Source: Candidatus Pyrohabitans sp. JdFR-17
Lineage (GTDB): Archaea; Hydrothermarchaeota; Hydrothermarchaeia; Hydrothermarchaeales; BMS3B
NCBI GenBank assembly: GCA_002011115.2
Contig: MTME02000068.1
Location: forward strand, 606-64,605
Length of the DNA: 64,000 bases
Reading direction: 5' to 3'
Shown here: in pieces, positions 11,799-56,426 of the stretch
How positions within the stretch are numbered: position 1 is the first letter of the stretch
Layout: the number at the start of each line of letters is the position of its first letter
Translations under genes and position numbers: made by a program
Notes under the pieces: model-generated
What the model saw: the letters and a program-made list of their open reading frames with translations, nothing else
Told to the model about the DNA's origin: nothing
Databases searched by the model: none

Positions 11799-11966
11799 TT
11801 GTTTAAATAAATTATTAAATTTTGGCAGGATTTTAAATTGGAGTATTTGAATTAGGTGGCTTTATAAAAATTTAATTTAACTAATTCTTGTGGTATAAAC
11901 TATTTTTTAAAAAAAGTTTTATCATTTCAAAATTTAGTGAATATCATTCAGAGCGGAGGTGAAAAT

Positions 11967-14447
11967 ATGGAAATAAGCATGAGCAGGCGTGAGTTCATAA
12001 AAACCTCAGCGGCGACCGCAGCTATGCTTGCCGCTGGTATGAGTGCTCCTGCGATGGCTGCGCAGGGTGATGGGAAGATAAAGTTTGGCCGCGCTCAGTG
12101 CAGATTCTGTGGTACGGGGTGCACAGTGCTCGTAGGTGTGCGCAACGGCAGAGTTGTTGCCGTCAAAGGCGATGCCAATTCACCCATAAACTTCGGCAGG
12201 CTGTGTATGAAGGGTTATTCCCTGCCCCACATAATGTACGGAGGCGGTGGCAAAGAGCGCCTGACCAAGCCAATGGTCAGACAGCCCGATGGTAGTTTCA
12301 AGGAGGTAAGCTGGGACGAAGCTCTGGAGCTGATCGCAGATACCTTTGCAAAGTACATCAAGGAGTACGGCCCGGACAGCGTTGCCTGGTACGGCTCAGG
12401 GCAGAACACCACTCAAGAAGCATACGCTGCTAACAAGCTGTTTAAAGGTATAATTGGCACTGCCAACGTTGAGGGTAATCCCAGGCTGTGTATGGCTTCT
12501 GCGGTAGGAGGGTACCTCAACACCTTTGGCGCAGACGAGCCCGCTGGGAGTTATGACGACATAGACTATGCGGACACCTTCTTCATAATAGGCTCAAACA
12601 TGGCAGAGCAGCATCCAATGCTCTTCCGCAGGGTTATAGACAGGAAGAGCGCATATCCAGACAGGGTGCGCGTTATAGTAGCAGACCCGCGCACAACGCC
12701 AACGGCGAGGTACGCGGACCTTCACCTCAAATTCAAGCCGGGTACAGACATGTACCTGCTGAATGCAATGGCTTATGTTATAATAGAAGAGGATCTGGTC
12801 GACTATGAGCACCTGAAGCACTGCACCTTCAGAGTCGGTCTTGGTCCTGCCGGCGAAGAGGTGGACCTCGACGGATTCAAGGAGTTCCTCAAGGACTACA
12901 CGCCAGAGAAAGTTTCCGACATAACCGGCGTACCCGCCGAGGACATACGCTTAGCTGCGAAGTGGTTCGGACGCAAGGGTTACTCTGCGCTAAGCATGTG
13001 GACCATGGGCTTGAACCAGCGCACTCAGGGTGTAGAGCTTAACTGTCAGGTGCACAACCTGCATCTGCTAACCGGCAAGATAGGTAAGCCCGGTTGCGAT
13101 TCTCTTAGCTTGACAGGGCAGCCTAATGCGTGCGGAGGTACACGCGAACAGGGCGGATTAACTCACATCCTGCCGGGGCATAGAGCAGTTGCCAACGAGA
13201 AACACCGCAAGGAGGTCGCCGAGGTCTGGGGCGTGCCCGTTGAACAGATGCCCAAGAAGCCCACCGGGCCAGCGGTCAACATGTTCATGCGCCTAGAGAA
13301 GGGTGATATCAAGGCAATATGGATAAACACCACCAACCCCGCACATAGCCTGCCCAACTGCGACCGCTATGCGGAGGCGATGCGAAAAGCATTCACTGTG
13401 GTGAGCGACATATACTGGAATAAAACTACTGAAGTTGCGACAGTTGTTCTCCCCAGTGCAATGTGGGTAGAGAAAGAGGGCATAATGGGTCAAACCGATA
13501 GAAGAAGCCAGTTCATACCGAAGCTGGTAGACCCGCCAGGCGAGGCAAAGCCCGACTTCTGGCAGATTAACGAGGTCGCCAGGCGAATAGCAGAGAAGCT
13601 GGGCAGAAAGGTCAAGTATGCTGTCAGGGACAGGAAAGACCCGGTAAAAATCCTGAGCACAATAGAGGTCTACGGTCTTGGATTCTACGATGACCCGAGG
13701 GTTAAGAAAGGGGAGATGACCCCAGAGGAGGCTGCCTGGAACGAGTACAGGGTACTCACAAAGGGTCAGGATGTCGACCTCTATGGTGCCACCTACGAGA
13801 AGCTCAAAGCCCATGCAGGAGGCGTACAATGGCCATGCCCGAGCACAGAGTTTGACAACCGCGGCAGCAACAAGCGCTACATCTCCCGCGATTATGCTAT
13901 AAAGGTCTTCGGTACAGACAAGAAGAGGTATGCCACCGGCTACGTTACGCTCTACGACCAGCACATGGAGGAGCACGGCTATCCGGGACCAATAAACTAC
14001 TATGGTGGGCACAAGCTCAAGAACACAAAGGACAAGGCGGTTATCCGCGCATTAACGCCTCGTATGGACTACGAGATGCCCGACAGCAGCTATCCCTTTG
14101 TGCTCAACACCGGCAGAGTTATAGAACACTGGCACACTGGTACAATGACCATGCGTGTGCGCCTGCTGCGTGAGCTTAATCCAGCGGCCTACGTGGAGAT
14201 TCACCCAGATGATGCAGACAGGTTGGGCGTAAAGAGTGGTGAGAATGTGATGCTTATCTCACCGCGCGGCAGTATCATTCTGCCTGCATGGGTGACGGAG
14301 CGCGCCCAGCCTGGCATGGTGTTCGTGCCCTGGTTCGACGAAAAGAGGCTTATCAACGACCTAACCGTAGACGTGCCCGATAGCTGGTCAAAGGCGAAAG
14401 AGCCTGACTACAAGGTGTGCAAGATTAAGGTGGTCAAAGCCACCTAA
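11967..14447 (+). CDS. napA: Periplasmic nitrate reductase catalytic subunit NapA-like (molybdopterin oxidoreductase)
   Basis: Start moved to the ATG after the GGAGGTGA RBS. Tat signal SRREFIKTSAATAAMLAAG. [4Fe-4S] motif CRFCGTGCTVLVG...GRLCMKGY. Followed by napG/H/D homologs. Confidence 0.8.
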   Translation: MEISMSRREFIKTSAATAAMLAAGMSAPAMAAQGDGKIKFGRAQCRFCGTGCTVLVGVRNGRVVAVKGDANSPINFGRLCMKGYSLPHIMYGGGGKERLTKPMVRQPDGSFKEVSWDEALELIADTFAKYIKEYGPDSVAWYGSGQNTTQEAYAANKLFKGIIGTANVEGNPRLCMASAVGGYLNTFGADEPAGSYDDIDYADTFFIIGSNMAEQHPMLFRRVIDRKSAYPDRVRVIVADPRTTPTARYADLHLKFKPGTDMYLLNAMAYVIIEEDLVDYEHLKHCTFRVGLGPAGEEVDLDGFKEFLKDYTPEKVSDITGVPAEDIRLAAKWFGRKGYSALSMWTMGLNQRTQGVELNCQVHNLHLLTGKIGKPGCDSLSLTGQPNACGGTREQGGLTHILPGHRAVANEKHRKEVAEVWGVPVEQMPKKPTGPAVNMFMRLEKGDIKAIWINTTNPAHSLPNCDRYAEAMRKAFTVVSDIYWNKTTEVATVVLPSAMWVEKEGIMGQTDRRSQFIPKLVDPPGEAKPDFWQINEVARRIAEKLGRKVKYAVRDRKDPVKILSTIEVYGLGFYDDPRVKKGEMTPEEAAWNEYRVLTKGQDVDLYGATYEKLKAHAGGVQWPCPSTEFDNRGSNKRYISRDYAIKVFGTDKKRYATGYVTLYDQHMEEHGYPGPINYYGGHKLKNTKDKAVIRALTPRMDYEMPDSSYPFVLNTGRVIEHWHTGTMTMRVRLLRELNPAAYVEIHPDDADRLGVKSGENVMLISPRGSIILPAWVTERAQPGMVFVPWFDEKRLINDLTVDVPDSWSKAKEPDYKVCKIKVVKAT

Positions 14448-14551
14448 AACCTTATTTATTTTTAAAGCAGGTCTTACTAAATTTTATTTTATAATCAGAT
14501 TTATAAATTATTGGGGCAGTATACTTAAAATAAAAGTTTCTGGTGTTATAT

Positions 14552-14992
14552 ATGCGGCTTGCAATAGTGCTTTTCCTGATAATGCTCATTCTCGCAGGGT
14601 GTGTCGAGAAGGAAGAGACAGTTGTAGCTACAGAGAAAAAACCTTCACCGCCGCTGGCTGAGGAAGCTCCTGAAACCCAGGTTCAGAAAGAAAAAGTTGA
14701 AAAGAAAGCTGGACTGACAATAGCTGATATCCTCAATAACCCGGCGGCATACGAAGGCAAGGAGGTAATACTGCGCGGCAGAGCTACGCCTGGCTTAGCC
14801 TTTGAATTTGTGGATGAGCAGCCATATTTGCTGAGCGATGGTACGGGGGAGATATGGGTGATTACCCGGGCTATGATGCCCATGCAGGGGGCTGAGATAA
14901 CGGTGAGAGGCGAGGTGGTGGTACCCTACCAGATTAAAGGGCGCCACTACGAGGTTGCGCTCATTGAGATTGAAAGGGAGGAAGAGTATTGA
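14552..14992 (+). CDS. Small lipoprotein with OB-fold-like C-terminal domain, function unknown
   Basis: Lipobox LAGC, E/K-rich linker, then YEGKEVILRGRA...ITVRGEVV. Overlaps the napG start. Confidence 0.5.
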   Translation: MRLAIVLFLIMLILAGCVEKEETVVATEKKPSPPLAEEAPETQVQKEKVEKKAGLTIADILNNPAAYEGKEVILRGRATPGLAFEFVDEQPYLLSDGTGEIWVITRAMMPMQGAEITVRGEVVVPYQIKGRHYEVALIEIEREEEY

Positions 14993-15732
14993 GGCTGAGC
15001 AGGAGGAGCTTTATAAGGAGCTCTGCGCTGCTGTGGTTCGGCTTTTTTGGGTTTAAGATGAGAAGAGACGTGCCTGTCATCCGTCCTCCAGGCGCAACGA
15101 GTGATTTTCTTGCACGCTGCATACGCTGCGGTAAGTGCGGCGAAGCCTGCCCCTATGACTCCATAAAGTTTTTTGACATAAGCGCGGGTGCAAACGTGGC
15201 AACCCCCTACATAGACCCCCTTGAGACACCGTGTTATCTCTGCCTCAAGCGCACCAGCGAGGGCAAGGACGAGCCTCTCAGCGACTACCTTCTGTGTGGC
15301 GAAGCTTGCCCCACGGGCGCACTGAAGAAGATTAAGAACGACAGGGATACGCTGCTTTCGCTTCCCGATGAGCTGAAGATGGGTGTTTCTGTGCTAAACC
15401 GCGATATTTGCTTAGCCTGGCAGTACGATTCCTGCGGGGAGTGCTACTACAACTGCCCTCTGCGAGACGACGCCATGCTGGATTACCCGCCAAACGAGGT
15501 TATCACAGGTGCAGTAGGGATTCGCCCCTATGTTAATGAGAAGCACTGCGTGGGCTGCGGAATGTGCAACTACGTGTGCCCCGTGAATGAAAAGATAGCA
15601 AAGGCTACGGTCGAGCCTGGAAGGAAGCTTACATACTTCGAGGAGCGTTACGCTGCCATGGTGAGAAATGTTATAGGCAAAGCAGGACGCGAAGTAAAGC
15701 TTCCAGCTGTACGCGTGGTTAAGAGGGTGTAG
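14989..15732 (+). CDS. napG: NapG-like periplasmic poly-ferredoxin
   Basis: Tat signal SRRSFIR. Clusters CIRCGKCGEACP, CGEACP, CGECYYNCP and CVGCGMCNYVCP. Confidence 0.75.
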   Translation: MRLSRRSFIRSSALLWFGFFGFKMRRDVPVIRPPGATSDFLARCIRCGKCGEACPYDSIKFFDISAGANVATPYIDPLETPCYLCLKRTSEGKDEPLSDYLLCGEACPTGALKKIKNDRDTLLSLPDELKMGVSVLNRDICLAWQYDSCGECYYNCPLRDDAMLDYPPNEVITGAVGIRPYVNEKHCVGCGMCNYVCPVNEKIAKATVEPGRKLTYFEERYAAMVRNVIGKAGREVKLPAVRVVKRV

Positions 15733-15733
15733 C

Positions 15734-16588
15734 ATGAAGGTAAAGGTAATAAGGCGGGTGTTTCAGCTTGCTGTGCTTGCCGTGCTCATCGCTGTGCCTA
15801 TTTACACCCAGAACCCCATAGAGTGGGCACCCTCGCGCATAGCTCTGGGAGAGCTTCCTCCCCCCAGGGTTTCTCAGGTGTGGGGCGACACCTGGAGCTT
15901 CAGCTTCTACGGCATAAACATAACCCATCCCCTTGCCGCTCTGGAAGCGATTCTCGCCGCGAAGGTTATCTACCTCCCGCTTATTATGGCTGCTCTGCTA
16001 CCTATCGCGATAACGCTGCTCCTGGGCAGGGTTTTCTGCTCCTGGCTCTGCCCGGTAGGCTTTCTGCTGGAACTGAATCAGAGGTTTAGGAGCTTTCTCA
16101 GGGCAAGGGGGATAGGGGTAAAGGTAAAACTCAGAGATTACCGCTATCATCTGCTGGGCTTTACGCTAATGCTCACATTCTTCTTTGCCACTCCCATTGT
16201 ATCCGCCTTTGACCCTCCTCATGTGCTCGGAAGGGAGCTCTTTTACCTGTTCACCTATCACAGCGTGAGTCTTGGTGGCATAGCCCTCCTCACTGGAATC
16301 TTTGCCTTTGAGGCTCTTGCCGCCGAGCGGGGATGGTGCCGCTCACTGTGTCCCGCAGGAGGTCTTCTTTCTCTGCTTGGAGCGAAGAGATTGCTCAAAA
16401 TACAGAAAAGGAAGGAGCGCTGCATATTGTGCGGAGAATGCAACCTTGCCTGCCCCTACGACCTTCGCCCTGTAGAGCTGGGCATAGATAAGGATTTTAA
16501 CGATAAAACCTGTGATAACTGTGGGCTGTGCAGAGACGCATGTCCTGCGGGTGCCCTGTACTATACCATTAATACCACAAGGAGGTGA
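15734..16588 (+). CDS. napH: NapH-like membrane iron-sulfur protein
   Basis: Polytopic, with CSWLCP and CRSLCP motifs. C-terminal clusters CILCGECNLACP and CDNCGLCRDACP. Confidence 0.75.
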   Translation: MKVKVIRRVFQLAVLAVLIAVPIYTQNPIEWAPSRIALGELPPPRVSQVWGDTWSFSFYGINITHPLAALEAILAAKVIYLPLIMAALLPIAITLLLGRVFCSWLCPVGFLLELNQRFRSFLRARGIGVKVKLRDYRYHLLGFTLMLTFFFATPIVSAFDPPHVLGRELFYLFTYHSVSLGGIALLTGIFAFEALAAERGWCRSLCPAGGLLSLLGAKRLLKIQKRKERCILCGECNLACPYDLRPVELGIDKDFNDKTCDNCGLCRDACPAGALYYTINTTRR

Positions 16589-16830
16589 AAAAGTTGCCGG
16601 TATCCGGAGCTGTGATTGTGCCTGTGCCGGGCAAGGAGGAGGAGGTTGAAAAGAATCTCAGAGCTCTGCCCGGCGTGGAGGTCAAAGGCAGAGGCGATAA
16701 GGGCATCGCCATTGTAATTGAAGGCGAGTCGACCGCCGAACTGCAGAGGCTGTCTGAGAGAATAGAAAAGTGGCAGAGTGTTGTGGACTTCCAGCTCATA
16801 TACGTGAATGTGGAGGACGAGGTGGAGTGA
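16585..16830 (+). CDS. napD: NapD-like maturation chaperone
   Basis: 81 aa. The pattern VSGAVIVPVP...LPGVEV...GIAIVIEGES...VVDFQLIYVNVEDE matches the NapD fold pattern. Confidence 0.65.
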   Translation: MKKLPVSGAVIVPVPGKEEEVEKNLRALPGVEVKGRGDKGIAIVIEGESTAELQRLSERIEKWQSVVDFQLIYVNVEDEVE

Positions 16831-17921
16831 GCAGGCTGGGATTTGTAGGCACACCCTGTCAGATTCAGGGGCTGCGCAAGCTCCAAGCTCTTGCAGATAA
16901 TCTGGAGCTGGGCTGGGCAAAAAACGTGGGTCTAGCGATTGGTCTCTTCTGCATGGGCAATTGGAGCTACCCCTGCATCAAGGGGTACCTGGAGAAGCAC
17001 GGGATTGAGCTGGAAAAGGTAAATAGGGCCACAATCTCTGGATATGAGGTTGAGATATCGCTTAGCAACGGGAGAGTTGTGCTGCCCCTTACAGGTCTTA
17101 GAAAATACGTCCGCCTTGCCTGCAAGCTATGCCTGGATTTTACCTCAGAGTTGGCGGACGTAAGCGTAGGCAGCATAGGCTCACCTCGTGGCTGGAGCAC
17201 AGTAATTGTGCGCTCAGCGCATGGTGAAGAGCTGGTGAGCAAAGCGGAGGCAGCAGGAGTAATTGAGGTCCGCGAGGTTAACGAGGCACAGCTCAAAAAG
17301 CTTGAAGAAACTGCAAGGAAGAAGATTGAGAGGAACACCAGGAGGATTTTGGGCAGGATTAGGCAGGGCATGAAAATACCTCACTACAGTACGAAAGAGT
17401 TACAGAGCCTGCCCATAGTAAGTGGAAAAGACTTCAAAGAACTCTGGGATGAGATAGTGGTCACTGGTTTGTGCGATGCCTGCGGCGCTTGTAGCGCCGC
17501 GTGTGAGCACATAGAGATGAGGAACGGGCTGCCAAGGTTGAGAAAGCGCTGCCCCACCGGATGTGACAGGTGTTACATCGCATGTACAAGAACAGCACTC
17601 CCAGTTGAAGTACTTGAAAGGAGTTTTAACCTCGGAGGTACTCATGCACCCTACATTGGAAGGTATCGGCGCATACTTGCTGCTCGCGCCACCAGCGAGG
17701 AGCTTCACGCCCGCGCGCAGGATGGTGGCGCGGTAACCGCGCTGATAAAATTTTCTTTAACCGCTGGCATAATAGACGAGGCACTCCTCACCTGCAGAAA
17801 TGAAGAATGGGAGCCCTTCGCAGTCTTTGTAGGAGGCGCTTCGGAGGTTTCAAGGTGCGCTGGTTCTGTGTACGCCGCCTCAAGTCCACTCCCACTGCTG
17901 CGCACACAGAGTTCATATTAA
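16827..17921 (+). CDS. FrhB/FdhB-family (F420-reactive flavo-FeS) protein with permuted domain order: C-domain, Cys cluster, N-domain
   Basis: Probable GTG start, overlapping the napD TGA as GTGA. GFVGTPCQIQGLRKL...ACKLCLDFTSELADVSVGS is FrhB C-domain-like. Cys cluster CDACGACSAACE...CPTGCDRCYIAC. DGGAVTALIKFSLTAGIIDEALL...GSVYAAS is FrhB N-domain-like. Confidence 0.6.
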   Translation: MSRLGFVGTPCQIQGLRKLQALADNLELGWAKNVGLAIGLFCMGNWSYPCIKGYLEKHGIELEKVNRATISGYEVEISLSNGRVVLPLTGLRKYVRLACKLCLDFTSELADVSVGSIGSPRGWSTVIVRSAHGEELVSKAEAAGVIEVREVNEAQLKKLEETARKKIERNTRRILGRIRQGMKIPHYSTKELQSLPIVSGKDFKELWDEIVVTGLCDACGACSAACEHIEMRNGLPRLRKRCPTGCDRCYIACTRTALPVEVLERSFNLGGTHAPYIGRYRRILAARATSEELHARAQDGGAVTALIKFSLTAGIIDEALLTCRNEEWEPFAVFVGGASEVSRCAGSVYAASSPLPLLRTQSSY

Positions 17922-18021: not shown

Positions 18022-19506
18022 ATGAAAACAAAGTATCTTTTAATTTTTGCAATAGCTGCAGCAATGGTACTTAGCACCGTCAACGCCCAGCAATTTAAAG
18101 AACCAGGTGCACCTTGTCTGAGCTGCCACGATACTGTGACCCCGGGCATAGTGAAGCAGTGGGAGGAGAGCAAGCACAGTAAGGTTGGGGTAAAGTGCTA
18201 CGTATGCCACCTCGCCAAGGATGACGACCCAGCCGGCTTTGAGCACATGGGATACAGGGTTACCGCCGTAGTTTCGCCGCGCTACTGTGAAAGCTGTCAT
18301 CCCAAACAGGTAGCAGAGTTTTCAAAGAGCAAGCACGCTTGGACGGCATTCATAGGACCACTGAAGCCCTGGTACAGAGAGATGGTCAAGCAGGGCAAGG
18401 ACCCGCTGAAACTTGAGACCGCCCTCGAGGTCAATCCTAGGGACTTCATTAAGGACAAGCTTACACCGCTTTATCCGGATAGCGGCGCTCTGAAACGTGC
18501 TGGTCTGCTTGATAGCAAAGACTACTACCACGAGAACCAGGTGCTTGGCTGCCTTGAGTGTCATGGTACCTATGTCATTGCTAAGGACGGCAAGATTCTA
18601 GACGGCTGGCCCAACAATGGTATCGGCAGGGTTAATCCCGACGGCACTATGGGTACCTGCTCGGCCTGTCACACCAGGCACAGGTTCAGCATAGCAGAGG
18701 CGCGCAAACCTGAGACCTGCGGTCAGTGCCATCTCGGCCCAGACCACCCGCAGATAGAGATATACGAGGAGAGCAAGCACGGCAATATCTACGCGAGCAG
18801 CGGAGAGCACTGGAATTGGGATGTGCCACCTGGACAGTGGGGTCCGGAGGATATAGCGGCGCCCACCTGCGCAACCTGCCACATGTCCGGCTTCGGCGGT
18901 GTGGTTGAGAGTACCCACGACGTTGGCGCGAGGCTCTACTGGGAGCTCCAGCCCAAGAAGTCAGTGCCTCAGTGGGACGACCCGAGCTTAGTGCCTCTGG
19001 GCAAGCAGAAGCCTGACGAGGAGCAGGCGAAGAAGGGCAGAGCTGAGATGAAGAAGGTCTGCAGAGTGTGCCACGCCAGCGACTGGGTTGACGGCTACTT
19101 CGAGAGCTTCGACAAGGTGGTGAGCGACTACAACAAGGTCTACGAATACACTGAGAAGCTCCTTAACACCGCATACGAGGAGGGCTTGATAGACAAGTCA
19201 AACCCCATCGACGAAATTCCAGAGATAATGTACTACTACATCTGGCACCACGATGGTCGCAGGTGGAGAATGGGCGCCAGCATGATGGCACCAGACTGGA
19301 CACACTGGAACGGTGCAGTTGACGCGCTATTGGACAAGCTCAACATGATGGAAGAATGGATAAAGATGCAGCGCGAGAAGAAGCAGCTTGAAGAGCGCGT
19401 GGCAAAGCTTGAGCAGAAGAAGGGCGTGTGCGGACCAACAGCGATTGCTGCAATAGCTCTGCTGCCACTCGCTGGCTACGCAGCGCTGAGGAGAAGGAAG
19501 CTCTAA
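18022..19506 (+). CDS. Octaheme cytochrome c, hydroxylamine-oxidoreductase (HAO/epsilon-Hao-like) family, C-terminally anchored
   Basis: Signal peptide and eight CxxCH motifs (CLSCH, CYVCH, CESCH, CLECH, CSACH, CGQCH, CATCH, CRVCH). HLGPDHPQIEIYEESKHG block. C-terminal coiled coil, then CGPTAIAAIALLPLAGYAALRRRKL. Confidence 0.75.
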   Translation: MKTKYLLIFAIAAAMVLSTVNAQQFKEPGAPCLSCHDTVTPGIVKQWEESKHSKVGVKCYVCHLAKDDDPAGFEHMGYRVTAVVSPRYCESCHPKQVAEFSKSKHAWTAFIGPLKPWYREMVKQGKDPLKLETALEVNPRDFIKDKLTPLYPDSGALKRAGLLDSKDYYHENQVLGCLECHGTYVIAKDGKILDGWPNNGIGRVNPDGTMGTCSACHTRHRFSIAEARKPETCGQCHLGPDHPQIEIYEESKHGNIYASSGEHWNWDVPPGQWGPEDIAAPTCATCHMSGFGGVVESTHDVGARLYWELQPKKSVPQWDDPSLVPLGKQKPDEEQAKKGRAEMKKVCRVCHASDWVDGYFESFDKVVSDYNKVYEYTEKLLNTAYEEGLIDKSNPIDEIPEIMYYYIWHHDGRRWRMGASMMAPDWTHWNGAVDALLDKLNMMEEWIKMQREKKQLEERVAKLEQKKGVCGPTAIAAIALLPLAGYAALRRRKL

Positions 19507-19535
19507 GCTTCCTATTCTTTTTCCTTTTTTGAACA
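19507..19535 (+). terminator. T-rich tract after the octaheme gene
   Basis: cttcctattctttttccttttttg immediately after the stop codon. Archaeal terminators are oligo-T tracts. Confidence 0.4.
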
Positions 19536-19582
19536 TGTTCGCACAAAATTATTTTATAAGCTTATGGGAGTTATTTATCACC

Positions 19583-19702
19583 ATGAAGAAGTGTGGAAAC
19601 TGCCAGCGGAGCGAGGAGGAAGTCCCTATCCTCAAGTACTATCACAAAGGCGATAAGCACTACATCTGCTCGCGCTGCCTGCCAATGCTCATCCATGGTT
19701 AG
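19583..19702 (+). CDS. 39-aa zinc-ribbon protein (below the ORF-track cutoff)
   Basis: Manual translation: MKKCGNCQRSEEEVPILKYYHKGDKHYICSRCLPMLIHG (CxxC...CxxC). Ends 6 nt before the next gene. Confidence 0.45.
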   Translation: MKKCGNCQRSEEEVPILKYYHKGDKHYICSRCLPMLIHG

Positions 19703-19708
19703 GGTACC

Positions 19709-20899
19709 ATGATAACACTGATATTGCGCTTTCTTGCAGCTGCGCTTGTGTATTTTAGTCTATCAATATTTCTGGGTATAGCAGAGATTTTTAATTTTTA
19801 CTTATTTGCCCCAGCCCACGTTCACTTTGCCTTTGTGGGCTTTGTTTGCGGTGTTATCATCGCTACAATGTACCAGCAGGTGCCCACACTAACCGGAGCG
19901 GAGCTTCACAACAATCGAGCAGCGAGGGCGAGCTTCTGGCTTTTCAACGCTGGAATAGTGTTATTCTCAGTAAGCTATCCAAAGTTCAGATTCCTCGCAT
20001 CTGCAGGCGCTTTGCTATTGCTCGTCGCCTTCTATCTTTTCACATACAATGTCATAGCAACCATATCCAGCAGGAAGGGCGAGAGCTACGTATTCAAATT
20101 CTACTCCGCCTCGAGTATTTTCCTGAGCATCGCCGCAACGCTGGGATTTCTGTTTACGGTTAACCCATCGCTAATAAGCTATCGCCCCGCCCATGTTCAC
20201 CTCGCTTTAGTGGGCGGTGTGGTACTTATCATCGCGGGCGCAATGTCCTGGATGCTCCCCATGGTTGTGGTTAAGGAGATTTACAACAAACGCTGGATGG
20301 ACTACGTGTTCTATGCTATTGTGGTCGCATCTCTCGGCTTAGCTTTTGGCCTAGCACTTTCCAAAACCATTGCCCTGCTTTCTGGCGTAGCTTTGCTGGC
20401 TGCTGTCCTGCTCTTCATCTACGACATGGTTAAGAGCTACACCGCTCCGACAAAAGCAGCGTTCAAATCCACGCCTGTGGAGGCCAGGTTCTTCCTTGCT
20501 GCCCTAGCCTACCTTGCGCTTACAATGCTGCTTGGCTTAGCTCTGGTGCTGTCTCACCCGGGCAGAGGCTTTGTGATTGCCCATGCCCATCTCGCCGCCC
20601 TTGGTTTTGTGGTTCAGACGGTGATTGGCGGGCTTTACCATGTGATACCCACGCTTGCATGGACGAAGCTCATAGCCCGCGAGAAGGAACGAGCACCCGC
20701 CTCATTTAAAGAACTTTTCTCAGCCAAGCGCTCACGATGGGTTTTTATAGCTTTTAACGTGGGCACCCTCCTCCTCGCCTCTGGATTTGCTTTTGCAATC
20801 AAAGGTGTAACCCTTTTTGGCGCACTTCTTGTTGCCTTCGCATGCATTGCCTTCGCAGCTGAGATGCTGGGTGTAATAAGGAGAGCTGGCGCTATTTGA
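19709..20899 (+). CDS. 12-TM membrane protein with three repeated AHxH helices (NnrS- or heme-copper-oxidase-subunit-I-like?)
   Basis: 396 aa. H37/H39, H162/H164 and H292/H294 sit in AHVHFAFVG, AHVHLALVG and AHAHLAALG, at predicted TM2, TM6 and TM10. Confidence 0.5.
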   Translation: MITLILRFLAAALVYFSLSIFLGIAEIFNFYLFAPAHVHFAFVGFVCGVIIATMYQQVPTLTGAELHNNRAARASFWLFNAGIVLFSVSYPKFRFLASAGALLLLVAFYLFTYNVIATISSRKGESYVFKFYSASSIFLSIAATLGFLFTVNPSLISYRPAHVHLALVGGVVLIIAGAMSWMLPMVVVKEIYNKRWMDYVFYAIVVASLGLAFGLALSKTIALLSGVALLAAVLLFIYDMVKSYTAPTKAAFKSTPVEARFFLAALAYLALTMLLGLALVLSHPGRGFVIAHAHLAALGFVVQTVIGGLYHVIPTLAWTKLIAREKERAPASFKELFSAKRSRWVFIAFNVGTLLLASGFAFAIKGVTLFGALLVAFACIAFAAEMLGVIRRAGAI

Positions 20900-20991
20900 A
20901 CCTGCGGAAGCTAAGCAATTTAATTTTGGTGAGTATGACCTCCGTTTCGCGTAGCGATAGCTCGCCAATCTCCTTAAGATTGATGAGAGGT

Positions 20992-21120
20992 GCGGCGCCC
21001 TCATACGGTTCGGAAGGGGTGATAGGGGTTACCCGGAACAAAGTTCCGGGTGACGAAGTGGGGAAGGCGACCCATCAGGTACGGATGGGTTGATAGGGGC
21101 GGGGAAGGCGCCCCTATATC
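20992..21120 (+). repeat. Structured hairpin repeat, copy A (long unit then short unit)
   Basis: 21011-21068 is near-identical (one G indel) to 54291-54347. 21082-21120 is related to 54248-54286. Each unit is closed by ATAGGGG...CCCCTAT. Confidence 0.7.
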
Positions 21121-21159
21121 TCAAATTTCTTATATCATAAACCCTAATAGATGTAGGAT

Positions 21160-21630
21160 ATGAGAATTAAAAAACCTGCCACAGAGAACGAACGCGTTCT
21201 CGCAACCTTTTTGCTTGTGTTCATAGTTTATTTTGGGCTGGACTCCCTTGCGTCGCTTGTATTTACAGAGGAGAGTCTATCCTTTCTGAGATATCGCCTC
21301 ACCCTCTCTTTTATTATAGGGATAATCGCAGGAGCGCTTTTCTACCTGTGGGCAAAGCCTGAGGAGGAAGAAAAGCCAGAGGAAAAGCCAAAGGTGCTGG
21401 ACAAGAGCTATGCTATACTTGAGCGCGCCCTGAGCGAGGACGAAGCTTTGCTTCTCGAGATAATAAGGGAGAATGAGGGCATAACTCAGGACTCGCTGCG
21501 GTTCCGCACAGGCTTTTCCAAATCAAAGGTCAGCGCTCTCCTGCTCAACCTGGAGAAGAAGGGAATAATTACCAGAGAGAGACTGGGAAGAACATACAAG
21601 GTTTTTATTGCAGACTGGATTAAGAAGTGA
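21160..21630 (+). CDS. Membrane-anchored winged-helix (MarR-like) protein
   Basis: Two N-terminal TM segments, E/K/P linker, then LLEIIRENEGITQDSLRFRTGFSKSKVSALLLNLEKKGIITRE. Confidence 0.6.
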   Translation: MRIKKPATENERVLATFLLVFIVYFGLDSLASLVFTEESLSFLRYRLTLSFIIGIIAGALFYLWAKPEEEEKPEEKPKVLDKSYAILERALSEDEALLLEIIRENEGITQDSLRFRTGFSKSKVSALLLNLEKKGIITRERLGRTYKVFIADWIKK

Positions 21631-24112: not shown

Positions 24113-24466
24113 TATTAAGACCCTTAAAGGATATTACTTAAGATAGCTCATAACACACCATCTACTGCTTCCCTTACCTGCTAAATTTTACACTATATAA
24201 ATATTACCTCAAAATAACTCTGACTAAGAATTCGCATCCTTACTGCTGTTTTTGCAAAAATATGTATTTTTAGTAATAAAATATTTAATTTTTGATTTTA
24301 TTTTTCTATTATGAAATTACATGCCAAAAAATGCACATTTTTTAAATCATGGACGGTTTTGGACAATTATGTACCCTTCTGTGTGGTTTGTTGTTTTATC
24401 TCCTGCATGGTTGTCTCGGCAAATTATACTCGCCTCTGCGGAAAGGTATATGCCGAGGTGATTGAG

Positions 24467-24868
24467 ATGAAAAAGAGCGCGAAAATTGCAATCGCTGGTT
24501 TGGCGGCACTTCTGCTGGTGGGAGGCATCGCCTACGCCCACTGGGGCTTCCTCGGCGGTGGATACGCAGCCCCTGGGTGGGGCCATGGAATGGGCATGAT
24601 GGGCCCTGGAATGATGGGGTATGGAGGCTATCCTGCCTGGAGCTACGGCTATGGCTTCGGAAAGGAACTAACCGATGAGCAGCGGGCAGAGATACAGGAA
24701 AAGATTCAGGAACTTCAGGAGAAAGGAGCCTACCCGTGGGAGATTCGCACAGAGGTGTTCAAGCTGTTACAGAAGTTCGGCGTGATAGACAATGAGACAA
24801 CCCCAGTGCCAGGCTATGGGTTTGCCCCAGGCTTCTATGGCTGCCCGATGTGGGGGTACGGCTGGTAG
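24467..24868 (+). CDS. Secreted Gly/Met/aromatic-rich protein with LTXXQ motif (ZraP/Spy/CpxP-like metal-stress protein)
   Basis: Start moved to the ATG after the GAGGTG RBS. Signal anchor, then GWGHGMGMMGPGMMGYGG, LTDEQRAEIQEKIQELQ, and C-terminal GFYGCPMWGYGW. Confidence 0.5.
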   Translation: MKKSAKIAIAGLAALLLVGGIAYAHWGFLGGGYAAPGWGHGMGMMGPGMMGYGGYPAWSYGYGFGKELTDEQRAEIQEKIQELQEKGAYPWEIRTEVFKLLQKFGVIDNETTPVPGYGFAPGFYGCPMWGYGW

Positions 24869-24939
24869 CCGTGCCCTTTTTCTTTTCTTATTTAGGAAAG
24901 AGTATTAAGTAGGTAGGAGAATATTATTATGGTGACAGG

Positions 24940-25290
24940 GTGATGAAGAAGTACCTCAGCTACATAGCCTTTGCAATTCTAGGACTCCTGTTGCTCCTGA
25001 CAATTCTATATGAGACTGGCTCCCCGTGGGGCGTGTGCCAGGCGTGGGGCAGCATCATATCCCCCGGCAGCATGGCGGAGATGCACCGTAGGCACATGTT
25101 CGGCTACGGTTTCCATGGATTTGGGCTCCTATTCTGGGTGCTCGTCTTCGCATTTATATACCTGCTGATAGCTGGGAACAGAAAGGAAGAGGAGAGCGCT
25201 ATAGATATACTGAACAAGCGCCTCGCCAGGGGAGAGATCACAAAGGAAGAGTACATGGAGATGAAGAGGGAGATTCTGGGCAAGGACTAG
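24940..25290 (+). CDS. Membrane protein with C-terminal SHOCT domain
   Basis: Two TM segments, then LNKRLARGEITKEEYMEMKREIL. Confidence 0.6.
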   Translation: MMKKYLSYIAFAILGLLLLLTILYETGSPWGVCQAWGSIISPGSMAEMHRRHMFGYGFHGFGLLFWVLVFAFIYLLIAGNRKEEESAIDILNKRLARGEITKEEYMEMKREILGKD

Positions 25291-25937
25291 GGCTCAAGTA
25301 TGCGAACTTCTATGCTCTCATCCTTTTCTGCAACCAGCTTGCGGAAAAGCTCAGGGTCTGCACTGGTCTGGGGGATATAGTTGTAATGCATGGGTATGAC
25401 CACGCTTGGTTTTATAGCCAGCGCTGCTTCTGCAGCCTCACGCACATCCATGGTGTAGTGCCCGCCCGCAGGTAGCAAAGCCACGTCCGCCTTTACGTCG
25501 CTCATCTCAGGTATAAAGTCGGTATCGCCCGCATGGTAAATGCGCACGTCATTTATGCTCACCACCACACCTACGCCTAAGCCGCGGGGGTGGAAGGGTT
25601 TTGCTTTGTTGTACGCCTCCACCGCCTCAACTTTAATCCCGCCAATCTCGACGCTGTCTCCAGCCTTAATCACCCTCACATCACCAGAGCAGCGCCTTGC
25701 ACAGCCCTGCGTTGTGATTATAACCGTCGATGTCTTCATTATCTTGCCTGCGTTCTCCACGGCGCAGTGGTCCGCGTGCTCGTGGGTCATAACTATTACA
25801 TCCGCAGCTTCAGCGCTGTCTGGTATAACGTATGGGTCTATGTAGACAATGCCTGCATTGCCCTTCAGCTTAAAGCTTGCATGCCCGAACCAGGTTATCT
25901 CCACCCCTTTAAACTCAGTAGTGTTCATCTTTATCAC
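25287..25937 (-). CDS. Metallo-beta-lactamase-fold hydrolase (UPF0173-like)
   Basis: HEHADH motif. 216 aa. Confidence 0.7.
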   Translation of the reverse strand: MIKMNTTEFKGVEITWFGHASFKLKGNAGIVYIDPYVIPDSAEAADVIVMTHEHADHCAVENAGKIMKTSTVIITTQGCARRCSGDVRVIKAGDSVEIGGIKVEAVEAYNKAKPFHPRGLGVGVVVSINDVRIYHAGDTDFIPEMSDVKADVALLPAGGHYTMDVREAAEAALAIKPSVVIPMHYNYIPQTSADPELFRKLVAEKDESIEVRILEP

Positions 25938-54356: not shown

Positions 54357-54512
54357 GTTCCTATCTAGATGACGCTTGAATCTATGGTGGCAGGAGGTCT
54401 CGCAACTCTCTGCGAGAGTTGCTTCGACTTCCCTCGCATACGCTCGGGAAGTAATAGGAACCCGCTGGTGGTTCCTATCATTTTGACTCGTTAAGCTTCT
54501 TTTAAATATCCT

Positions 54513-54827
54513 GCGGGCTAGGCCGGGGGGTTCGGCGTCCCCTGTAACCTGAAATCGTCGATATGCAGGGGCCGAAGCTCCGGGGGCGGAGCGCTCAACC
54601 CCGCGTTTCAGCCCGCGGCACGGTGATGAAGCGTCGTCCCGTAGGACCGGTGGTTCCCCAGCGTGTCTCGGAGGAGACACGCCAAGGGGATTTGCCCGCT
54701 GAACCCCGTCAGGCTCGGAAGAGAGCAGCGGTAGGCGGGACATGCGGTGCTTACGGGGGTGCGGCGCCAAGCTTGTGCCGCGGTCAACTGGCGCGGGGAA
54801 GAGGTTCCCACCCCGGAGCGTGCCCGC
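54513..54827 (+). ncRNA. ffs: Signal recognition particle RNA (archaeal 7S RNA)
   Basis: 5' GCGGGCUAGGCCGGGGGGUUCGGCGUCCCCUGUAACC. Domain IV motif CCCGUCAGGCUCGGAAGAGAGCAGCGGUAGGCGGGAC. 3' GCCCGC pairs with 5' GCGGGC. Followed by T5. Confidence 0.85.
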
Positions 54828-54832
54828 TTTTT
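54828..54832 (+). terminator. Oligo-T terminator of SRP RNA
   Basis: TTTTT directly after the closing helix. Confidence 0.5.
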
Positions 54833-56247: not shown

Positions 56248-56330
56248 GTCGGGGTAGCCAAGCCTGGTATGGCGTCAGCCTGCTAAGCTGATGGGCTTTG
56301 CCCGCCGGGGTTCAAATCCCCGCCCCGACG
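56248..56330 (+). tRNA. tRNA-Ser (anticodon GCU)
   Basis: Folded by hand. Acceptor GUCGGGG/CCCCGAC, D arm GCCAAGCCUGGUAUGGC, anticodon loop CU-GCU-AA, long variable arm UGGGCUUUGCCCGC, T arm CGGGG-UUCAAAU-CCCCG, discriminator G. Confidence 0.85.
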
Positions 56331-56426
56331 CTACCTCCTCAGAAGCACTCTATTTCTGGTGTGATTATTATTCGGATAATGGAGATTGTCATAACCTTTT
56401 TACTTTTGTGCTTAAATCAAAAACTT

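Follow-up and report, generated by a model that had tools for sequence, protein, structure and literature searches.

The 396-residue membrane protein encoded on a 64,000-nucleotide stretch of DNA from the archaeon Candidatus Pyrohabitans sp. JdFR-17 (contig MTME02000068.1, positions 606 to 64,605; hereafter the window) is built from three tandem modules of four transmembrane (TM) helices, and according to its structural model it has the fold of subunit I of the heme-copper oxidases (HCOs). Its gene follows that of a 39-residue peptide with four cysteines, here called the 4-Cys peptide. We give an even chance to the reading that in this 12-TM protein, a fused trimer of the module, three interfacial bis-histidine heme sites form a membrane heme-b redox module of the response to N-oxides or to nitric oxide (NO) stress.

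An earlier note on this DNA had described twelve TM helices arising from three repeats, and this description is confirmed by comparison of the thirds, by profile matching and by modelling. Pairwise BLASTP among the thirds, which are 24-32% identical to each other, gives E-values of 1.8e-9, 7.8e-8 and 3.8e-6, values that place their similarity far beyond chance. A hidden Markov model (HMM) of the single module, built exclusively from bacterial single-module proteins, matches the window protein three times, each match starting near HMM position 4 (Table 1). The AlphaFold2 model (124-sequence alignment, pLDDT 96.1, pTM 0.94) contains 12 long helices, and the pairs H37/H39, H162/H164 and H292/H294 begin helix 2 (residues 31-62), helix 6 (153-186) and helix 10 (286-324), in agreement with their earlier assignment to TM2, TM6 and TM10. 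The repeat length of about 128 residues given at that time is close to the approximately 125 residues of the tandem repeats, but it does not hold for the third, which reaches about 140 residues because of a 14-residue cytoplasmic insertion between TM10 and TM11.

The histidines of the protein are, in full, H37, H39, H67, H162, H164, H283, H292, H294 and H311. All six histidines of the HxH pairs are present, as are the glycines five positions further on (G44, G169 and G299), and H162 is invariant throughout the 12-TM family. Of the three modules, only the third retains the inner YH motif, in which H311 corresponds to the invariant histidine in the sequence GVGYHILPRF of the single-module proteins (compare MYHLIPK in cbb3 oxidases). 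The distribution of lysine and arginine (16 versus 5, positive-inside) gives a topology with both termini in the cytoplasm, which places the HxH pairs near the outer face of the membrane.

The resemblance of the HxH helices to helix X of HCOs, noticed in the first reading of the sequence, reflects genuine homology, since the Pfam profile COX1 (PF00115) matches the protein with 76.2 bits against a cut-off of 34.8. The match consists of three stretches, the best of which places residues 29-89 on profile positions 338-397 (the helix X region); all three fall on the part of the profile that covers helices IX-XI and do not amount to an end-to-end match. A phmmer search against PDB sequences likewise aligns residues 5-89 with TM9-11 of the cbb3 oxidase subunit CcoN. 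The structural comparison with COX1 and NorB that had been suggested extends this to the whole protein. In a Foldseek search of the PDB with the AlphaFold2 model the best match is CcoN (8smr_E, E 1.4e-10, TMq 0.84), and the top 47 matches are without exception subunit I chains of HCOs or NO reductases (NORs), with NorB, aa3, bo3 and ba3-type enzymes following CcoN. The proposal that the protein is a still-symmetric relative of HCOs gains further strength from free single-module homologues and from the register in which their profile matches all thirds of CcoN. The proposed family can be recognised by a module, single or triplicated, whose second helix begins with HxH and a glycine five positions on and has an end of the G.GYH.LP type, and by an adjacent gene for a C-x2-C-x21-C-x2-C-LPM(L/F)IHG peptide; the window protein has three such modules, and the peptide gene is adjacent.

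The free homologues, which occur in many anaerobic bacteria, are 4-TM proteins of about 137 residues whose genes adjoin the peptide gene in 48 of 58 loci (31/41 in Nitrospirota, 10/10 in Thermodesulfobacteriota, 5/5 in Actinomycetota and 2/2 in Chloroflexota) and which match the 12-TM profile with E-values from 1e-13 to 1e-21. Their family comprises at least 1,853 clusters at 90% identity, mostly from Nitrospirota, Thermodesulfobacteriota and Actinomycetota, and is automatically named cbb3 subunit 1 in databases or listed there as a 'hypothetical protein'. Among the invariant residues are the HxH pair (H39 and H41), G46 and the sequence GVGYHILPRF, located where helix 2 reaches the cytoplasmic side, and the cytoplasmic face is the most strongly conserved part of the module. 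Two unrelated genomes annotated with Pfam labels show a Crp/Fnr regulator gene and the single module, followed by divergent DUF1858 and peptide genes, and confirm that these four genes form a self-contained module; the outer flanking genes are wholly different. As the repeat exists as a free protein, the window protein can be regarded as a covalently fused trimer of a unit that elsewhere presumably works as a homotrimer.

How the histidines may be used becomes apparent from alignment with HCOs. The single-module profile matches CcoN with an E-value of 4e-13, in register on TM1-4, TM6-7 and TM9-12, and A/B-type oxidases or NORs with E-values of about 1e-3; in NorB (4xyd_A) it aligns with residues 51-152, within the first third of the protein. 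The single module is closest to TM9-12 of CcoN. In the P. stutzeri enzyme (3mk7) the established ligands are H60 and H347 for heme b, H345 for heme b3 and H207 for CuB. If the first and second histidine of an HxH pair are called p1 and p3, H60 is p1 of TM2, H345 and H347 are p1 and p3 of TM10, and H207, which is reached by ungapped extension of the alignment, is p3 of TM6. On this mapping each HCO site combines p1 of one module with p3 of the preceding module, and of the three sites that are possible only two are used in HCOs. By the same alignment, the window protein has the positions of the low-spin heme ligands (H37 for H60, H294 for H347), that of the high-spin heme ligand (H292 for H345) and the CuB-ligand position on TM6 (H164 for H207); its TM7 (residues 194-217) contains no histidine, and two of the three CuB/FeB ligands are absent.

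We infer that the window protein has all three inter-module pairs, namely H37 with H294, H292 with H164 and H162 with H39. Among 264 family members the histidines co-occur in these pairs of positions, with phi values of 0.91 for TM2-p1/TM10-p3 and 0.67 for TM2-p3/TM6-p1 in a statistic that ignores phylogeny; patterns such as HHH..H occur as well, and all six histidines are retained in only about 10% of the members sampled. Together, ligand mapping and co-occurrence lead to the prediction of three interfacial bis-histidine (heme b) sites near the outer face and are consistent with it. The six histidines would pair across the module interfaces to give three equivalent sites, which most likely hold b-type hemes arranged round the pseudo-threefold axis.

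The constant partner of the 12-TM gene is the 4-Cys peptide and not the octaheme cytochrome encoded upstream of the pair in the window. Among the 12-TM loci retrieved through the membrane protein, a homologous peptide gene is found directly upstream or in the same small cluster at all but two, L130 and L131, whose contigs end 129 nt upstream and about 270 nt downstream of the gene, respectively. In the window the peptide stop codon and the start codon of the 12-TM gene are 6 nt apart, the spacing reported earlier and read again from the open reading frames. In the peptide, two CxxC pairs are separated by a spacer of 21 residues and followed by a C-terminal helix with the sequence LPMLIHG; as it lacks a signal peptide, it is presumed to be cytoplasmic. 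AlphaFold2 predicts from the single sequence a beta-hairpin followed by a C-terminal helix (pLDDT 88.6). Pfam and NCBIfam hold no family for it, and a fold search of the PDB returned generic zinc-finger knuckles only (E>0.5), so that an identity as rubredoxin is unsupported.

A scan of one genome per species with a DNA pattern encoding CLPMLIHG yielded more than 100 genuine peptides, all of which have the two CxxC pairs and the fixed 21-residue spacer, which is identical in length across 98 distinct peptides. The invariance of CLPMLIHG among these matches is by construction, as the pattern is the motif itself; the CxxC pairs and the spacer lie outside the pattern and hence provide independent support, as do the loci found through the membrane protein. 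The peptide would dock on the strongly conserved cytoplasmic face of the membrane protein, at the YH(V/I)IP end of TM10. It also occurs in other company. In Desulfitobacteriaceae/Desulfosporosinus its gene adjoins one for a fusion of DUF1858 with NIR_SIR (a nitrite/sulfite-reductase domain), in ANME-2 a 2x[4Fe-4S] ferredoxin that is encoded beside CGGC and GXGXG proteins carries it as its C-terminal domain, and a second paralogue in the same Hydrothermarchaeota genomes (L074 and L092 in WANX01; L012 and L101 in WANW01) is accompanied by a CGGC-domain gene instead of a 12-TM gene.

Clues to function come from bacterial gene neighbourhoods and from domain fusions. DUF1858/TIGR03980, the 'hybrid-cluster-protein-associated redox disulfide domain', is encoded directly beside the peptide in 65 of 112 loci, and YgbA_NO is present in all ten Thermodesulfobacteriota loci. 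Conserved ATGA-N6-TCAT palindromes occur two per divergent promoter region between the module gene and the DUF1858 gene, beside a Crp/Fnr regulator gene; 32 such boxes were counted in 17 regions (L010, L017, L021, L037, L100 and 12 further Nitrospirota loci) against 0.08 expected. In anaerobes, CRP-family regulators termed HcpR govern hcp and genes of nitrosative stress (PMC1274295). On the cytoplasmic side, natural C-terminal fusions join the 12-TM protein to DUF2249 and ScdA_N (P0245) or to DUF59 (P0090), and the proteins DrpA/DrpB, which contain DUF2249 and DUF1858, act in the nitrate respiration of Thermus (PMC6282519). On the outer side, P0146, a 12-TM protein with three HxH pairs, is extended at its N-terminus by a CxxCH domain with a signal peptide and by one more TM helix. 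This fusion suggests that the outer sites are redox centres exchanging electrons with c-type cytochromes, which fits the octaheme neighbour in the window, and redox contact with c-type cytochromes of the outer face is thus plausible.

Taken together, the neighbourhoods, the fusions and the nap and octaheme genes of the window share N-oxide or NO-related redox chemistry as a common theme. The heme-b module would consume or buffer NO, or relay electrons for this purpose, during nitrate and nitrite reduction, and in this archaeon it could exchange electrons with the octaheme cytochrome on the outer face. Its function would stand nearer to that of NnrS or of a primitive NOR than to that of an oxidase.

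Several observations weigh against this interpretation. Hemes with six-coordinate bis-histidine ligation are poorly suited to catalysis, and the window protein shows no evident site of the FeB/CuB type. The co-occurrence figures for the histidines are uncorrected for phylogeny. The link to NO stress is drawn from the names of domains and from bacterial gene neighbourhoods rather than from archaeal data, and no nor, hcp or nrf genes lie within 9 kb on either side of two single-module loci. The window itself contains no DUF1858, DUF59 or CGGC gene; in a search of the window for these, for the 83-residue Zn-ribbon protein found at related loci, for Crp homologues and for the MBL-fold protein, the last was the sole match. 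Finally, in loci of about 8 kb from Desulfosporosinus (L007, L011, L026 and others) and ANME-2 (L022, L023, L054) the peptide occurs without an HCO-like gene nearby, so that its function is not exclusively tied to the membrane protein.

A different role was suggested by the position of the gene in the window, where the earlier note had expected a quinol dehydrogenase of the NapC/NrfH type. In such a role the 12-TM protein would replace NrfH/NapC, oxidise quinol at the outer face and use its interfacial hemes to pass the electrons on to the anchored octaheme nitrite or hydroxylamine reductase. The 12-TM gene directly follows the octaheme gene in six related genomes, no NapC/NrfH gene is seen in the nap-octaheme cluster (11.9-21.6 kb), the HxH sites lie on the outer face, and P0146 shows that a c-type heme domain can join a 12-TM scaffold. 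However, the gene order nap-FrhB-octaheme-peptide-12TM-MarR is limited to a sublineage of at least 62% identity to the window protein (the window, L001, L005, L012, L120 and L125). At the other 12-TM loci examined the gene either has no further companion or stands with DUF59, a cupin, a protein with a CGGC domain or the 83-residue Zn-ribbon protein, and never with hao or nap; in other archaea the peptide/12-TM pair is found without a cytochrome gene, and two single-unit loci inspected over 9 kb on either side contain none. Hence the linkage to HAO that had been noticed is confined to one Hydrothermarchaeota sublineage, an outcome that the earlier note had itself named as a refutation, and a quinol dehydrogenase is unsupported as the general role. 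Within the window, the octaheme stop codon is separated from the peptide gene by a T-rich run and a TTTTATAA box. They look like an archaeal terminator and a TATA box, which suggests that peptide and 12-TM gene form a transcription unit of their own. In addition, the conserved partners are cytoplasmic, NapGH of the same cluster could already fill the role of quinol dehydrogenase, and no quinol site is identifiable in the protein. We therefore regard this alternative as rather unlikely.

Quite unlikely, in our estimate, is a membrane heme sensor or transducer that would report N-oxides or the redox state, through the 4-Cys peptide or through DUF1858/DUF2249-type proteins, to an adjacent regulator (MarR/DUF7343 in the window, Crp/Fnr in bacteria). 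A regulator gene is indeed adjacent in most contexts, DUF2249 and ScdA_N are naturally fused to the 12-TM protein, and the module is most conserved on its cytoplasmic face. DrpA/DrpB, which have the same domains and are not known to have a membrane partner, modulate the expression of nitrate-respiration genes in Thermus (PMC6282519). Yet regulators usually adjoin the genes they control, so that adjacency does not make a sensor, and paired Crp-type boxes precede the module gene as well as the DUF1858-peptide operon, marking both as targets. Three symmetric redox sites would also exceed the needs of a sensor.

The partners associated with iron or Fe-S clusters (DUF59/FeS_assembly_P, ScdA_N/DUF1858, CGGC and the 4-Cys peptides) and the Nramp and MgtE genes that recur nearby in Nitrospirota could speak for a role in metal or heme handling, with the HxH pairs and the inner histidine binding iron, copper or heme or passing it across or into the membrane for the repair of iron centres or Fe-S clusters. 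This is improbable, as the histidines sit exactly at the heme-ligand positions of HCOs and no transporter-like features were found, while Nramp and MgtE lie on the opposite strand at a distance of 1-2 kb and are absent in other phyla, and thus look like lineage synteny. There is next to no chance that the protein is a canonical O2 or NO reductase (subunit I of a cbb3-type oxidase, or NorB), as the automatic JGI and NCBI names and the COX1 match might imply, since the two TM7 histidines are missing, TIGR00780 (ccoN) scores 37.4 bits against a cut-off of 583.15, the gene cluster around the 12-TM gene contains no gene for subunit II, CcoO/CcoP or NorC, and the Pfam match is the helix X region three times over.

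Comparison with known systems delimits the family further. With CcoN, the C-family HCO subunit (3mk7, 8smr, 9g6b), the protein shares the pseudo-threefold 12-TM fold (TMq 0.82-0.84), the HxH of TM10 followed by G...G..YH.IP, histidines at aligned positions of TM2 and TM6, their location near the outer face and the topology. It differs in lacking the His-His pair of TM7 and with it CuB, in having additional histidines, through which TM2 and TM6 become copies of TM10, in thirds that are still alike, in being about 70 residues shorter and in having a cytoplasmic 4-Cys peptide as partner in place of CcoO/CcoP. With NorB of cNOR and qNOR it has in common the fold (3o0r_B, E 1.3e-7; 4xyd_A), the context of N-oxide respiration and the occurrence in anaerobes; as the FeB ligands on TM7 and NorC are absent, catalytic NO reduction is not predictable from its sequence.

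NnrS (PF05940), a heme and copper protein of denitrifiers with twelve TM helices and a role in NO stress, resembles the window protein in size, helix number, conserved histidines and its tie to N-oxides. The NnrS-like character that had been considered is nevertheless weak: in profile matching the window protein scores 16.5 bits against a threshold of 28 (E 0.0056), the in-register matches to the last two thirds of the profile are weak, and E<0.01 is attained by only 3 of the 22 single modules, so that membership is not supported. NapC/NrfH/CymA have in common with the 12-TM gene of the window the position beside a gene for a periplasmic-type multiheme reductase, but they are unrelated tetraheme c-type cytochromes with one TM helix and four CxxCH motifs, of which the 396-residue protein has none. 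The small cytoplasmic domains of DrpA/DrpB and of RIC/YtfE (ScdA_N) neighbour (DUF1858) or are fused to (DUF2249 with ScdA_N) members of the 12-TM and single-module family, whereas those proteins themselves are soluble and none is encoded in the window. In the full-text literature, subscription-only papers lying outside it, no account was found of symmetric 12-TM proteins, of the single modules, of the peptide or of a triplication model for subunit I. The protein belongs to the HCO superfamily by its fold but lacks the binuclear site that defines it, is still symmetric, has free modules as relatives and has a dedicated micro-protein.

Close relatives of the window protein (33-100% identity) are few and archaeal, mainly from metagenome-assembled genomes (MAGs) of Hydrothermarchaeota, and are automatically named 'cbb3-type cytochrome oxidase subunit I'. 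An alignment-based search retrieved 8 metagenome loci; the closest loci in the genome collection are L120 from Ca. Pyrohabitans jungbluthii JdFR-16, with a 12-TM protein of 90% identity, and L012, at a contig end and with the peptide only. A wider 12-TM family of about 430 residues (717 clusters at E<=1e-30) occurs in Methylomirabilota/Rokubacteria, Acidobacteriota and haloarchaea. Most of its members have HxHxH on TM6, a single histidine on TM2 and none on TM10. The main bacterial branch (P0018-P0127, about 430 residues) reads LHAHVHL on TM6, and some of its members are fused to DUF59. From the TM6 HxHxH and the one TM2 histidine, this branch would keep the site TM2-p3/TM6-p1, exactly the one absent from canonical HCOs.

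In a rough neighbour-joining tree the repeats of the Hydrothermarchaeota proteins cluster by position, which points to an old triplication. The 396-residue archaeal protein of locus L086 (4149-5336) behaves differently, as its repeats are 48-58% identical to each other, group together in the tree and each carry AH(A/V)HLAL(I/V)GWVSITI; it is encoded in a cluster of the order peptide-CGGC-DUF59-12TM. This suggests a second, independent or much younger triplication, or concerted evolution. The origin of HCOs and NORs and the cause of the pseudo-threefold symmetry of subunit I are a long-standing open question. We tentatively propose, while thinking it doubtful as a whole, that the free 137-residue proteins are the surviving pre-triplication block of HCO/NOR subunit I and form homotrimers with three interfacial bis-histidine hemes, that the window protein is a fused form with six histidines and fusion took place at least twice independently in archaea, that canonical HCOs arose by losing the TM2-p3/TM6-p1 site and converting another to heme-CuB/FeB, and that the family, together with the 4-Cys peptide as an obligatory component, is an unrecognised respiratory or NO-handling system of anaerobes. 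The free module may be ancestral to HCOs or a fragment derived from TM9-12 of a cbb3-like protein; its markedly better match to cbb3 (E 4e-13 versus about 1e-3) would agree with a derived origin as well as with a conservative cbb3.

The features of the locus are collected in Table 1.

Table 1. Features of the window around the 12-TM gene, and structured RNAs. Positions are those of the window.
Feature	Position	Strand	Basis or remark
Octaheme c-type cytochrome, HAO family, eight CxxCH, signal peptide, C-terminal TM anchor	18022..19506	+	Pfam, NCBIfam
T-rich stretch (19509-19530), then TTTTATAA (19552-19559), 24 nt upstream of the peptide ATG	19509..19559		Read from sequence
39-aa 4-Cys peptide gene, MKKCGNCQRSEEEVPILKYYHKGDKHYICSRCLPMLIHG	19583..19702	+	ATG 19583, stop 19702
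12-TM protein gene, 396 aa, modelled HCO subunit I fold, three tandem 4-TM modules	19709..20899	+	
Module 1, aa 1-123, TM1-4	19709..20077	+	Single-module HMM, residues 4-123, E 2.8e-14
H37-V-H39, outer end of TM2	19817..19825	+	H37 at CcoN H60 position
Module 2, aa 126-249, TM5-8	20084..20455	+	Single-module HMM, residues 126-249, E 5.4e-15
H162-V-H164, outer end of TM6	20192..20200	+	H164 at CcoN H207 position
Module 3, aa 257-396, TM9-12	20477..20896	+	Single-module HMM, residues 260-322, E 2.8e-7
H292-A-H294, outer end of TM10	20582..20590	+	At CcoN H345/H347 positions
H311 in GGLYHVIP, cytoplasmic end of TM10	20639..20641	+	
Membrane-anchored winged-helix regulator, MarR/DUF7343	21160..21630	+	
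Archaeal signal recognition particle (SRP) RNA, 226 bits, and tRNA-Ser(GCT), in this order	54511-54829; 56248-56331		Rfam scan

The nearest solved relative of the octaheme cytochrome is 4qo5_A, a 'hypothetical multiheme protein' (E 4e-55), with HAO-like proteins next; its hydrophobic C-terminal anchor ends in RRRKL (...GVCGPTAIAAIALLPLAGYAALRRRKL), possibly an archaeal C-terminal sorting signal. The nap cluster upstream (11937-17921) comprises napA with a Tat signal, a 149-residue lipoprotein-like reading frame, napG, napH, napD and a 383-residue FrhB/FdhB-like (F420-type) protein; napB and napC were not seen in it. An FrhB-like gene within a nap operon is unusual, and it is kept in L001, L005 and L120. 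On the other side, the MarR/DUF7343 gene lies 3' of the 12-TM gene in all members of the nap/octaheme sublineage with enough contig (that of L012 ends inside the 12-TM gene). Inverted repeats rich in GC, such as cccggaacaaagttccggg and ggggcggggaaggcgcccc, lie in the 260-nt spacer between the two genes (20900-21159); an Rfam scan of the window found nothing in this spacer, the SRP RNA and one tRNA being the only matches. These two RNAs confirm the archaeal origin of the window.

Further downstream, two small membrane or Gly/Tyr-rich proteins are encoded at 24311-25290, the second of which (24940-25290) has a C-terminal SHOCT domain; SHOCT genes also lie downstream of the 12-TM module in L001 and L005. 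The MBL-fold (Lactamase_B_3) gene mentioned above lies at 25287-25937 on the reverse strand and has homologues near the peptide and 12-TM genes in L002 (directly 3' of the peptide), L005 and L126. Between 30000 and 41000 the window contains a low-GC island (31-41% versus about 50% elsewhere) with genes for membrane proteins of the envelope or glycosylation type (YfhO/PTPS_related, UbiA, LPG_synthase_TM, DUF362), which is followed at 41.5-46.9 kb by T2SSF and T2SSE genes resembling those of type IV pili or archaella.

For the HCO superfamily, the window protein provides a natural example of a subunit I fold with three still-similar thirds, each bearing the HxH of helix X, and thousands of free single-module genes are expected to build the same fold as homotrimers. 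The pairing rule of the histidines explains which ligands HCOs kept, and together with the symmetric protein and the free modules it makes the triplication hypothesis directly testable on a protein of 137 residues. The analysis also defines a widespread micro-protein, C-x2-C-x21-C-x2-CLPMLIHG, and, in Nitrospirota, a self-contained four-gene module regulated by Crp, with a separate DUF1858-linked arrangement in other anaerobes. For strict anaerobes and for the Hydrothermarchaeota MAGs, the automatic annotation 'cbb3-type cytochrome oxidase subunit 1' may falsely imply oxygen respiration or a Nor enzyme, and the 12-TM family may show how respiratory oxidases were first assembled.

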